DNA from: a virus
Lineage: Duplodnaviria > Caudoviricetes
Direction: 5' to 3' (one strand)
DNA: 53,108 nucleotides
IMG/VR virus record: IMGVR_UViG_3300031975_000697
Coordinates: 1 to 53,108 of that record
The position numbers and the translations under genes were made by a program. Below the pieces are notes generated by a model. That model was not told where the DNA came from, did not search any database, and saw only the letters and a list, made by a program, of their open reading frames with translations. Shown here one piece after another: positions 6,602 through 53,108 of the stretch; position 1 is the first letter of the stretch, and every line of letters starts with the position of its first letter.

Positions 6602-6677
6602 AGGCGCCTAGCTCAACTGGTAGAGCAGCGGTCTCCAAAGCCGCAGGTTGGGGGTTCAAGTCCCTCGGCGTCTGCCA
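6602..6677 (+). tRNA. trnW: tRNA-Trp (CCA)
   Basis: 76-nt cloverleaf: acceptor AGGCGCC/GGCGTCT, anticodon loop CTCCAAA (CCA 6635-6637), GGTTCAAGTCC T-arm, encoded 3' CCA. Confidence 0.95.
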
Positions 6678-6682
6678 CTGAA

Positions 6683-6695
6683 CTTGACATCGAAC
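6683..6695 (+). promoter_or_regulatory. repressor operator/stoperator
   Basis: CTTGACATCGAAC between tRNA and lysA. Confidence 0.85.
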
Positions 6696-50943: not shown

Positions 50944-51462
50944 CTAGAGCTCCCAGCCCGCTTCCCGGTAGGCGCGGTCTGCCTCGTACAGAAGCCTCAT
51001 GTACTCGGTCAGCTTGGCCTCTGCGTCTGTGTGACTGACCTCTTCGATCGAGAAGTACTCGGAGATCAAGTCTCCCATCGCGAAGTCGCCTCCGAGGATG
51101 CGAAGGGCGACCGAGACGTTGACCTCGTCCCACTCTTCGGGGCTGATGTAGCCATCCGGGACGTCGTCCAAGCCTTGCCACTCCCACCACTCGCCTCCCC
51201 CTCGGACGATGGCGCAGGCTGCCTCGTAGTCCTCGCGCATGAAGCCGGACACGATCGGACCTGGCTCATATTGATAGCTCGGGTCAACTCCGTATCCGAG
51301 TCCGTAGAGCAACTGGCAGACGTTGAACTCACGCATCACAACCCTTTCCAGGCTGTACTCCCCGGAGTCGGTGATCGAGTGATAGATCGGGAATGCTTCG
51401 TTGCCGAAGGTGTCTAGCGCTTCCTCGGCCTGCTCGATGCCTCGCGTGACGGTGTCTTGCAT
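50944..51462 (-). CDS. acidic hypothetical protein
   Basis: MQDTVTRGIEQ..., 172 aa; AAGGGA RBS. Confidence 0.7.
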   Translation of the reverse strand: MQDTVTRGIEQAEEALDTFGNEAFPIYHSITDSGEYSLERVVMREFNVCQLLYGLGYGVDPSYQYEPGPIVSGFMREDYEAACAIVRGGGEWWEWQGLDDVPDGYISPEEWDEVNVSVALRILGGDFAMGDLISEYFSIEEVSHTDAEAKLTEYMRLLYEADRAYREAGWEL

Positions 51463-51568
51463 GGGTATCCCTTCAGTGCAGGTGTTTTCGATGGCTTGGG
51501 TGGTGGCTTCCACGGATCTCGGCCCATCTTGCGGGCACGCCTCATGGCCACCATCGTCTCGGCATCCA

Positions 51569-51679
51569 TCAGAGCGGTATGACTCGGTAGCTCCGCTCCC
51601 CGGTCCTGGTGTCTTCAACCAAGACTCGGATAGCTCCCCCGGTCACGTGCTGTGTGATGACTCGGTGATGTCCGTACAT
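51569..51679 (-). CDS. small hypothetical protein (36 aa)
   Basis: GGAG RBS; MYGHHRVITQHVTGGAIRVLVEDTRTGERSYRVIPL. Confidence 0.5.
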   Translation of the reverse strand: MYGHHRVITQHVTGGAIRVLVEDTRTGERSYRVIPL

Positions 51680-51681
51680 TG

Positions 51682-51867
51682 TCAAGTCTCCTCGGCGCGA
51701 ATATTCATCGAAGGCCAAACGTCATGGATCTTGCCGTCGTAGTCCATACGGACGCCGTACCGAAACTTGCCTTGGAACTCGATGGAGTCGACGACTGTGC
51801 CGCTCATGTCTTCGTCGCAGAACGTAGCCGTGACGCGGGCACCTGCCGGGTACCTTGGGTGTCTCAT
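51682..51867 (-). CDS. hypothetical protein (SH3-like)
   Basis: MRHPRYPAGARV...; ATGA overlap. Confidence 0.65.
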   Translation of the reverse strand: MRHPRYPAGARVTATFCDEDMSGTVVDSIEFQGKFRYGVRMDYDGKIHDVWPSMNIRAEET

Positions 51868-52070
51868 CGGAGCAGATCCTCGATGTGTATGCAGCCGACC
51901 CAGTCGGGGCCGAACTGCGGCGCGTAGCCGAGCACCTCGTCTTCCTGGCACGGAAACTCTGCCTGGCTCATACCTCGGTCGTCGGCGCTCGCCACCCAAG
52001 CCGGCGTAGCGATGAAAGCCGGCGCGGCCATGATGAAAGCTCCTGCTGCGATGCGCTTAGCGATGTGCAT
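51864..52070 (-). CDS. small secreted protein, first leftward early gene
   Basis: signal peptide; FPCQEDEVLGYAPQFG...GCIH. Confidence 0.75.
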   Translation of the reverse strand: MHIAKRIAAGAFIMAAPAFIATPAWVASADDRGMSQAEFPCQEDEVLGYAPQFGPDWVGCIHIEDLLR

Positions 52071-52084
52071 GTGACGTCCCCTTC

Positions 52085-52097
52085 GTTCGGTGTCAAG
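52085..52097 (-). promoter_or_regulatory. repressor operator/stoperator
   Basis: top strand GTTCGGTGTCAAG. Confidence 0.85.
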
Positions 52098-52109
52098 TCT
52101 TGCTGCGTA

Positions 52110-52183
52110 CGTGGGTAGCCGAGAATCGAACTCGGTAGCTTGCGCCAGAGGCCGGCGATCGTTCCATCGCGCCATGCCTACCC
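52110..52183 (-). ncRNA. tRNA-like structured element
   Basis: minus strand GGGTAG...CCGAG-TTCGATT-CTCGG-CTACCC: T-arm stacked on a 6-bp acceptor-like stem; no canonical anticodon arm or CCA. Confidence 0.45.
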
Positions 52184-52512
52184 TGATGTCTTAGTCACGA
52201 CCGAGTTGCGTTCCCTTAGTGGCCTTCACGTGGTTTACCACCGTTCACCAAGCCTTGCCCGGTCACCGCGCACTGTCACCACGCGTTCACCCGTTCGGGG
52301 CTCGGATCGTCACACGAAGCCTCATGGCGGTGCCCGTCACCGCTCCGCTTCGGACCGTATCTTCGCTCGATCGCTGTATGTCGTAGCTAGCGCCTAGCCA
52401 GTCAGCGGGCCTTACCGCTGCCGAAGGGATTTGCACGCGGGTCTGTGGCCTTTGATGCTATCTCTGCCTGCCGCGATCTTGCCGCTACGTTGTTCTGTTG
52501 TCTGTGTTCTCC

Positions 52513-52542
52513 ACCCTACCCGAACTGTCGTTCGGTGTCAAG
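52513..52542 (-). promoter_or_regulatory. early leftward promoter-operator unit 4
   Basis: CTTGACACCGAAC operator containing -35; N17; TAGGGT. Confidence 0.75.
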
Positions 52543-52658
52543 TGGCGGATCTCTGTGAGCTGGTCGGTCTCCGCTGGCGTCAATTCGCGTATGCAGTGCC
52601 GGAGGCCGGTACCCCCGGAGTCGGTTCGTGCGACCCGCTCTGTTCTGTTGTGGTTCCC

Positions 52659-52688
52659 ACTCTAGCACGTTGGCCGTTCGTTGTCAAG
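52659..52688 (-). promoter_or_regulatory. early leftward promoter-operator unit 3
   Basis: TTGACA-N17-(TGC)TAGAGT with operator over -35. Confidence 0.8.
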
Positions 52689-52793
52689 CGTCTGCGTCGG
52701 TGAGTTCATCTGGCTCTGTGCTGCTCCAAACCCGCTGGCTCTTGGGTTCCCCGAACGCTGCTCTCGTTGGCCTCTGTGCTGTTGTGTGTCTCC

Positions 52794-52824
52794 ACACTAG
52801 CACGGTGCTCGGTTCGTTGTCAAG
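52794..52824 (-). promoter_or_regulatory. early leftward promoter-operator unit 2
   Basis: TTGACA-N18-(TGC)TAGTGT with operator over -35. Confidence 0.8.
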
Positions 52825-52919
52825 TCCCGATCTGAGATCCGGTCTGGACTGCCTCCGAGCTGGAGATCCGCTGTTGTGTTGTCGTGGTTCACGTTGTCCG
52901 TGCTGGCCCAACAACAACG

Positions 52920-52949
52920 ACACTACACGGCGCCCCGTTCGGTGTCAAG
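52920..52949 (-). promoter_or_regulatory. early leftward promoter-operator unit 1
   Basis: TTGACA-N17-TAGTGT with operator over -35. Confidence 0.8.
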
Positions 52950-52959
52950 CCCGGCTGCA

Positions 52960-53108
52960 CACTGCCCCCCCCCCTGTGCAGGTGGGTGGGCCTGCCGGCC
53001 CCCTCCCCCTGGCCCCTAGGTGGGGCGCCCCTCCCCCGCCTCCTGCCGTGCGGGCACCGGCCCGCCTGCCCCCTGCTGCCCTGCCCTCGCTCCGGGTGGG
53101 TGCGCTGC
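52960..53108. repeat. very GC-rich, C-run-rich terminal region
   Basis: C10 at 52965-52974 plus many C3-C5 runs. Confidence 0.6.

Follow-up and report, generated by a model that had tools for sequence, protein, structure and literature searches.

A covarying tRNA-like structure ahead of the first leftward gene in an L5-like (Cluster A) mycobacteriophage and its relatives

The complete virus record IMGVR_UViG_3300031975_000697 (Duplodnaviria; Caudoviricetes; 53,108 bases, all of which were analysed and are called the window below) is organised as an L5-like (Cluster A) mycobacteriophage, judged by a tRNA-Trp gene in its left arm, its stoperator-type sites and the similarity of its right end to those of Mycobacterium phages, and carries a tRNA-like structure (TLS) of 72 nt at 52112..52183 on its minus strand. 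The TLS is genuine, beyond what chance would give, and its fold has been kept by compensatory evolution in many Cluster A mycobacteriophages. It mimics the stack of acceptor and T arm together with the D-loop/T-loop elbow of a tRNA, has no anticodon loop and would form the last ~72 nt of the leftward leader. With a confidence a little above even, we regard it as a tRNA-like 3'-terminal domain through which host enzymes of tRNA processing form and protect the end of the leader RNA and detach the early mRNA.

The element was delimited by its sequence, a covariance model and covariation. Along the minus strand it runs GGGTAG, GCA-UGGC, GCGAU-GGAACG-AUCGC, CGGCCUC, UGGC-GCAA-GCUA, CCGAG-UUCGAUU-CUCGG, CUACCC and A, followed by CG. 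An earlier note on this DNA had quoted this sequence with a 6-bp acceptor-like stem, a T arm and no CCA, all of which are present at 52183-52112. The 5' strand of the acceptor-like stem, GGGTAG (52178..52183, with G1 at 52183), pairs with 52118-52113 (columns 5-10 with 115-120 of alignment A2), where sequence and covariation both place the 3' strand CTACCC (52113..52118); a discriminator A follows at 52112 and then CG, with no encoded CCA. The T arm, CCGAG-UUCGAUU-CUCGG at 52119..52135, has the tRNA consensus G53, U54 U55 C56 R57 A58 and C61. The stretch CGGCCTCTGGCGCAAGCTA between these parts had been taken as unstructured in the earlier note; it contains a 4-bp stem closed by a GCAA tetraloop and, besides, the 3' strand of a D-like arm. 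The D-like arm (52151..52177, minus strand) consists of the outer pairs G7-C33 and C8-G32, an unpaired UGGC and a 5-bp hairpin GCGAU/AUCGC (52170-52155) with the loop GGAACG. The small third arm, UGGC-GCAA-GCUA (52136..52147, minus strand), stands in the place of the anticodon arm. Thus, the former statement that proper D and anticodon arms were lacking holds for the anticodon loop, but not for the arms as such, since a covarying D-like arm with a GG loop and a small third arm do exist.

Tests on the single sequence miss the TLS, and it is therefore the comparative evidence that decides whether the fold is real. Single-sequence folding gave a minimum free energy (MFE) of -30.2 kcal/mol, the mean of the shuffles being -27.6 (z -0.83), and 42 of 200 shuffles equalled it. 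The check with a tRNA gene finder and Rfam models that had been proposed for the element came out silent: ARAGORN (tRNA and tmRNA modes) made no call at the TLS in the window, nor in the right ends of 12 relatives, and Rfam gave nothing there at the gathering score, nor at E<=10 over 51900-53108 (only a chance TCV_Pr match elsewhere), and no tRNA match at E<=1 over 11 loci. The comparative set comprised the window, its blastn relatives, 26 IMG/VR loci from two pattern scans and L5, which together make 23 distinct sequences of 63-111 nt. RNAalifold on their MAFFT alignment predicted 19 pairs, 13 of them compensatory. A cloverleaf-like structure, written by inspection from the same sequences on which it was scored, had standard pairs in 97.8% of 644 cells, and 21 of its 32 pairs had changed on both sides. 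None of 500 column shuffles attained any of five pairing measures, and partners slid by 1-3 columns paired in 34-53% of cells. The slid controls are at a disadvantage because the structure was derived from the same 23 sequences, which does not explain the number of independent compensatory pair types. The covariance model built from the alignment (R1) had one match in the window, at 52183-52112 (71.4 bits, E ~1e-12), and none else at E<=10. The earlier proposal that the early leader contains a tRNA mimic with an acceptor and a T arm is therefore borne out by covariation and not by the single sequence, and the suggested comparison across Cluster A right ends did find the structure conserved in relatives. 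An alternative pairing of the invariant GGC with a 3' GCC, as in the MFE fold of the window, was also tried; it pairs in 53% of cells, shows no covariation and was rejected in favour of columns 11-13/36-38.

The same 21 compensatory pairs imply selection on the fold and speak against the idea that the TLS is a decaying remnant of a tRNA gene without present function, or just part of a longer coding sequence (open reading frame 51864-52175). This idea has some basis in the ATG at 52175, which lies inside the TLS and in frame with the first gene, and in the real tRNA genes that Cluster A phages carry. However, the lengths of the copies (63-111 nt) differ by non-multiples of three, the ATG is found in 3 of the 23 copies only, and the annotated first genes of the relatives begin downstream of the TLS; we consider a remnant or coding origin of the signal extremely improbable.

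The 23 copies show which parts are fixed and which vary. Compensatory versions of the acceptor include GGGTAG/CTACCC, GGGCAG/CTGCCC, GGACAG/CTGTCC and GGACGG/CCGTCC. G1-G2 are invariant, the base at -1 varies (A, C or T), the discriminator is A in 19, G in 3 and T in 1 of the copies, and the base after it is always C. The D-like arm has two to three outer pairs, and all 3 pairs of this outer helix have changed on both sides, as have 4 of 5 in its hairpin (GCGAT/ATCGC, GGGCA/TGCCC, GGTGT/ACACC, GCAGT/ACTGC, GGGAT/ATCCC), around an invariant unpaired UGGC and a loop GGAAYG that is invariant in 23/23. The GG of this loop could play the part of G18-G19 in the D-loop of tRNA. In the T arm G-TTCGATT-C is invariant in all 23 copies, 4 of the 5 stem pairs are compensatory, and nine versions of the stem occur. 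The stack of acceptor and T stem is 6+5 bp in the window and most copies and 6+6 in Timshel and HINdeR.

The third arm is the most variable part. The window, Twister and L013 have 4 bp and a tetraloop here, Timshel, Sheen and HINdeR lack the arm altogether, and copies of the L5/D29 type carry a long, branched and covarying arm, often with a GNRA cap; the short form is homologous to the base of the long one (columns 42-43/95-96 and 49-51/92-94). A 7-nt anticodon loop is found in none of the 23 copies. In the long-type copies (L004 1048-1148 and L015-L033), the design of the D-like arm, UGGCG plus a hairpin, occurs again in the expanded third arm. The internal loop of the latter, GGCAUCA, is invariant, its tetraloops are mostly of the GNRA kind, and CUAUGG stands at the junction, which hints at a tertiary contact of the tetraloop-receptor kind. 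A short motif, CTGAGCTTTG(G/A)T, recurs immediately before, inside (third-arm loop of D29) and immediately after the TLS in L5/D29-type phages (leaders of L007 and L018).

The distribution of the TLS was followed from the right end of the window. Among 491 matches, this end is 68-74% identical to the right ends of the Mycobacterium phage records listed; megablast against the phage collection gave no match, i.e., no near-identical relative is present there. The window phage is thus a distant relative, with an element 77% identical to the Twister copy. Sensitive blastn located the TLS at the same place in 13 phage records, RefSeq/GenBank duplicates included (Twister, WalterMcMickey, Topanga, Edison31, Timshel, HINdeR, Sheen and ArcherNM), and the long type was found in 112 phage records, all of Mycobacterium or Fromanvirus (e.g., L5, D29, RedRock, Turbido and Trixie). 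In every locus of a relative that was examined, the TLS stands just before the first leftward gene. As had been noted for the window, where this gene starts with the ATG at 52070, the position directly upstream of the first early gene is kept. The family can be defined by a GGRYRG acceptor, a D-like arm of the form UGGCG-stem-GGAAYG-stem, a G-UUCGAUU-C T arm and the place before the first leftward gene, and the TLS of the window (71.4 bits with R1) falls within this definition.

Related modules occupy the same position in phages outside the R1 family proper. Weak R1 matches of 17.6-19.5 bits were obtained there in Rebeuca, Trike, Goose and PurpleHaze. Aligned with Rockstar, Veracruz, Microwolf and Bxz2, these variant modules keep the acceptor helix and the T arm, and their inner arms differ. 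PurpleHaze, Microwolf, Bxz2 and Veracruz have 7+5 bp in acceptor and T stem (GGATCGG/CCGATCC or GGGATGA/TCATCCC). All variant modules lie downstream of a conserved motif GGNAACGCRRC, and two variant searches recovered them in 93 and 47 phage records. The loci concerned are L072 (1070-1152), L074 and L075 for PurpleHaze, Microwolf and Bxz2, L076 and L077 for Rockstar and Veracruz, and L068, L069 and L078 for Rebeuca, Trike and Goose; their acceptors have either 7 bp with a 5-bp T stem or 6 bp, and Rebeuca encodes ACCA after the acceptor. The core common to all variant forms (Microwolfvirus, Veracruzvirus and the Rebeuca type) is the acceptor with the T arm.

Acceptor and T arm constitute the minimal substrate of RNase P, RNase Z and the CCA-adding enzyme. 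What all variants keep is thus the part that tRNA end-processing enzymes need, and we count this in favour of a 3'-terminal processing domain.

Outside phages the family is nearly absent from what was searched. A pattern scan of the genomes of 185,579 species returned 33 loci with one family member, the other 32 scoring at most 27.3 bits or having no match; since the pattern covers spacer lengths of 10-40 only, no host-encoded counterpart was seen within that range. The single member lies at L044 692-769, on a Mycolicibacterium houstonense contig that is identical to IMG/VR locus L008. It scores 48.7 bits, has the acceptor GGACGG/CCGTCC and is followed after 15 nt by the stoperator-like CTTGACATGCAAC; it presumably belongs to a Cluster A-like prophage. 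A pattern scan of metagenomes gave 53 loci, the best with 28.8 bits, and no members. Members with at least 48.7 bits are thereby separated from pattern-matched non-members in genomes and metagenomes (at most 28.8 bits).

A possible role for the TLS is suggested by the leader RNA of L5 and D29, for which we rely on the available part of Dedrick et al. (2017; PMC5712189). According to that text, L5, D29 and StarStuff make an extremely abundant and stable non-coding RNA of ~500 nt from Pleft. In L5 it is the most abundant phage transcript, starts at 51,672 (transcription start site, TSS) and ends in a region, 51,140-51,190, where ~90% of transcripts are lost; the authors state that a canonical terminator is absent and that the formation of the 3' end is unclear. 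The L5 copy of the TLS reaches from 51,226 (G1) to 51,134 (discriminator), coordinates which were cross-checked against the printed sequences of probes A and C, and so fills this published 3' boundary (51,140-51,190; end of probe A at 51,133). Probe C (51,171-51,230) covers about the first two-thirds of the TLS; the text names it, like the 5'-most probe G, among those by which the ~500-nt RNA was detected, and probe B (51,023-51,082) detected only weak longer RNAs. The distance from the TSS to the discriminator is 539 nt, and 446 nt to the base before G1. The L5 deletions 51,195-51,619 and 51,195-51,407 could not be purified, and 51,407-51,619 was obtained (PMC5712189); both unobtainable deletions remove nucleotides 1-32 of the TLS, and the viable one spares it.

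We propose that leftward early promoter(s) at the right genome end would transcribe a long leader ending in the TLS. Host enzymes of tRNA 3'-end formation (RNase Z, or RNase E together with 3' exonucleases) would then cut just after the discriminator, at 52112 in the window. The cut leader would possibly receive CCA, its compact tRNA-like terminus would resist 3'-to-5' decay, and the same cut would free a short-lived early-gene mRNA. A cut of this kind with a protected end would explain why the leader is abundant and stable, why ~90% of the RNA is lost without a terminator, and why attempts to delete that part of the L5 leader failed. The earlier suggestion of a processing signal for the early transcript agrees with this insofar as the L5 TLS coincides with the mapped 3' boundary of the Pleft RNA; as regards excision by RNase P, the Northern text in the available part of PMC5712189 rather favours a TLS that stays on the 3' end of the RNA.

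A loss of transcripts at the TLS might also arise during transcription, if the fold acted as a structure-dependent pause, terminator or attenuator and ~90% of RNA polymerases stopped short of the early genes. The accessible text of PMC5712189 does describe the boundary as the place where ~90% of transcripts terminate, and the G+C-rich helices of T arm and acceptor close at the 3' end. On the other hand, no U tract follows the TLS, and a terminator scan was negative at the site. Moreover, a plain hairpin would suffice for this task, with no need to conserve the T-loop sequence, the GG loop and the four-way junction, and what the variant forms share is the tRNA core and not a terminator shape. 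Termination at the TLS as such seems very unlikely.

An acceptor/T-arm minihelix with an elbow is a classical substrate of RNase P, and G1-G2 of the TLS are invariant. RNase P could cut between 52184 and 52183, as in the case of mascRNA, generating the leader's 3' end and freeing a tRNA-sized RNA of ~72 nt. Species of ~100 nt are indeed reported on the L5 Northerns in the part of PMC5712189 available, but the smaller species are there said to share the 5' end, and the ~500-nt RNA is detected both by probe C, which lies almost wholly in the TLS, and by the 5'-most probe G. In addition, the RNA-seq boundary (51,140-51,190; end of probe A at 51,133) falls on the 3' side of the TLS and not on its 5' side at 51,227 (PMC5712189), and the -1 base is unconserved.

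Public D29 data were consulted with this in mind. The D29 TLS lies at 794-690 of locus L018, minus strand, and 13 public RNA runs from 4 studies contain its sequence. Four of the 13 were examined, as assembled contigs, from which ends, strand, level and non-templated CCA are unreadable and in which coverage gaps and depth steps are not evidence. Contigs bridge the leader into the TLS (X9 record 24, L018 739-1200, 0 mismatches; X8 record 12, 1-843). Among the ends listed, two studies have adapter-joined contig ends at L018 1200-1202, close to where the 5' end is expected, and one run has them at 802 and 828, i.e., 8 and 34 nt upstream of G1. The depth is highest upstream of ~800, and the summed contig depth drops between about 850 and 700, over the TLS, which is a weak hint only. 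The ends at 802 and 828 would suit a cut by RNase P, but contig ends cannot establish RNA ends, and the D29 contigs do not tell a 5'-side cut from a 3'-side cut at the TLS. For L5, the published coordinates (available part of PMC5712189) place the TLS where an abundant stable RNA has its 3' boundary; for D29, the contigs hint at this weakly. For the latter phage, the part available of a 2025 RNA-seq preprint (10.1101/2025.11.21.689395) again reports a sharp peak, located directly upstream of gene 89; the word tRNA does not occur in that part. Overall, release of the TLS by RNase P appears unlikely to us.

Several points weigh against our reading of the TLS as the processed 3' end of the leader. 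The TLS is not universal in the cluster: three Backyardiganvirus right ends and Bxb1 gave no R1 match (E<=1; E<=10 in one search) and no T-loop-like motif beside the first gene at this sensitivity. The stack of acceptor and T stem is 11 bp in most copies, against the canonical 12. The size of ~500 nt falls between the 446 nt expected from a cut by RNase P and the 539 nt expected from a 3' cut, and the text of PMC5712189, as far as available, treats probes C-F together, leaving small bands lit by probe C not separable. Essentiality cannot be assigned to the TLS because the unobtainable deletions also take ~180 nt of other conserved leader. The D29 run with adapter-joined ends at L018 802 and 828, upstream of the 5' end of the TLS at 794, fits 5'-side ends. 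Finally, the RNA support comes from the relatives L5 and D29, at a resolution coarser than a single nucleotide for the 3' end.

The TLS might, instead of or besides shaping the transcript, act in trans. It would chiefly be a tRNA mimic that titrates a host tRNA-binding protein, such as a processing, modification or CCA-adding enzyme, a tRNA-directed toxin or a defence nuclease, which would explain the toxicity of the leader; this corresponds to the decoy for tRNA-targeting defences considered in the earlier note. According to the available text of PMC5712189, the L5 region is toxic on expression in E. coli and M. smegmatis, which would go along with such a role, as would the abundance of the RNA. 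The elbow and the acceptor features are conserved and the other arms vary, and protein-binding tRNA mimics are known, e.g., YrlA (PMC4201824, available part). However, the toxicity is reported for the region and not for the TLS itself, the partner and its binding are hypothetical, and an element without an anticodon loop cannot mimic the target of an anticodon nuclease. A Ro60/TROVE gene is also missing: a search of the complete 53,108-base genome with TROVE PF05731 gave no match, and the control search was positive in 2 of 14 control genomes. The fixed place before the first gene fits a role in cis better, and a function chiefly in trans is in our view quite unlikely. We hold equally doubtful a combined course in which the leader is matured like the 3' end of a tRNA (cut after the discriminator, CCA-tailed, perhaps modified or charged) and then floods the host tRNA machinery or absorbs defence toxins directed at the acceptor end. 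Release by RNase P, mimicry in trans and termination are compatible with the proposed 3'-terminal domain.

Compared with known systems, the TLS shares features with several and fails the membership tests for tRNA, tmRNA and YrlA. On our reading it would function in the manner of tRNA punctuation, mascRNA and the 3' TLSs of plant viruses. It resembles a tRNA and the tRNA-like domain of tmRNA in the consensus T arm, the acceptor helix with discriminator and the GG in the D-like loop. The T arm of the window has the 5-bp stem, 7-nt loop and G53-C61 of a tRNA, whereas an anticodon arm of 5 bp and 7 nt and a 7-bp acceptor are absent; the acceptor has 6 bp, the D-like arm is nested, and there is no anticodon loop. 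In contrast to tmRNA, the TLS lacks a reading frame for a tag peptide, and ARAGORN and Rfam are silent on it. In plant RNA viruses, 3' TLSs of the TYMV, BMV and TMV types form the ends of genomic RNA, carry CCA and pseudoknotted acceptor arms and are aminoacylated. Like the TLS as we read it, they are 3'-terminal tRNA mimics that protect the end of a viral RNA and engage host tRNA enzymes; unlike them, the TLS of the window lies in the transcript of a DNA phage, has a plain acceptor helix and no encoded CCA, and has no match to them in Rfam. In MALAT1, RNase P cuts on the 5' side of the mascRNA module and the module leaves. As in MALAT1-mascRNA and MEN-beta, the TLS is a tRNA-shaped module that would end a very abundant non-coding RNA and could replace a terminator. 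The mascRNA module is released, whereas the Northern text in the available part of PMC5712189 suggests that the L5 TLS stays on the RNA; moreover, the setting of the TLS is a bacterial phage, and it has no Rfam match to this family. YrlA, as described in the available part of PMC4201824, combines mimicry of T arm and D arm with a neighbouring gene for Ro60 (TROVE) and a Ro-binding stem and occurs in M. smegmatis and some mycobacteriophages; it has the elbow mimicry in common with the TLS, its layout of arms differs, and no Rfam match links the two. Another close counterpart is the Pleft RNA of L5, D29 and StarStuff, a transcript of the same class from the same locus with the L5 and D29 copies of the TLS at its 3' boundary. 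A tRNA-like fold is not described in the available part of PMC5712189, where 'tRNA' refers to the five D29 tRNA genes only.

The surroundings of the TLS include stoperator-type sites and promoter-like units. Downstream, the stoperator-type repressor site CTTGACACCGAAC (52085..52097, minus strand) stands between the TLS and the first gene, 15 bases after the TLS, and a stoperator is found 0-25 nt downstream in 21 of the 23 copies. This site is one of 20 matches in the window to the 13-base CTTGACAMCGAAC (<=1 mismatch), against 0.13 expected. Seventeen of the 20 are oriented with local transcription (4 plus sites up to 23826 and 13 minus sites from 35460), and three depart from a simple split of the arms (16373 minus, 16617 plus and 32090 minus). 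The first leftward (early) gene follows at 51864..52070 (minus strand, ATG at 52070); it encodes 68 amino acids beginning MHIAKRIAAGAF and is preceded by the ribosome-binding site GAAGGGGA.

Upstream, the non-coding leader at 52184..52949 (minus strand) is presumed to be the body of an abundant leader RNA, by analogy with the Pleft leader of L5. It contains four tandem stoperator/promoter-like units on the minus strand (52949-52937, 52824-52812, 52688-52676 and 52542-52530), spaced by ~125-146 nt, in which TTGACA is followed after 17-18 nt by TAGTGT, TAGTGT, TAGAGT and TAGGGT, respectively; only the third passes a simple sigma-70 scan. The leader of L5 has three similar units. The conserved motif GGGAACGCAAC (52205..52215, minus strand) lies ~20 nt before the TLS, and its ACGC, C and GGT do not vary among the 9 right ends aligned, which come from four genera and include those with a variant TLS. 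Its consensus, GGNAACGCRRC(A)GGGT, was seen ~20 nt upstream of the TLS in loci L068, L072, L074-L078 and L001, and possibly marks a further segment of the leader RNA that is structured or binds protein.

The left arm of the window carries a true tRNA gene, tRNA-Trp at 6602-6677 (plus strand; Rfam 63.3 bits, with encoded CCA), the sole ARAGORN find in the window. Over 6602-6695 (plus strand) it is followed after 5 nt by a stoperator and then by a ribosome-binding site and a gene, a layout like that of TLS, stoperator and gene at the right end. Punctuation of an operon by a tRNA-type element is therefore already part of the design of this genome.

The TLS constitutes an RNA family for which Rfam has no entry and the phage records among the matches listed have no annotation: no annotation lies under these matches apart from an opposite-strand hypothetical protein in Trike, two records being wholly unannotated. 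No published description was found in the searchable literature, as far as its texts were accessible, a scope that excludes the earlier L5 and D29 papers in subscription journals and the 10,006 candidate viral RNAs catalogued in PMC10690425. L5 and D29 serve as reference mycobacteriophages, and Pleft is a strong promoter in wide use. A TLS at the boundary of the Pleft RNA offers a concrete hypothesis, tRNA-type end processing together with protection, for the published open question of how its 3' end is formed, and is a defined target for mutagenesis. If the leader, made within minutes of infection and in very large amounts, does pass for a tRNA in the host, the TLS would be the reason for the stability and toxicity of the RNA and for its need in lytic growth. 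The family, moreover, shows how the core of a tRNA can be retained while the other arms are swapped or lost.

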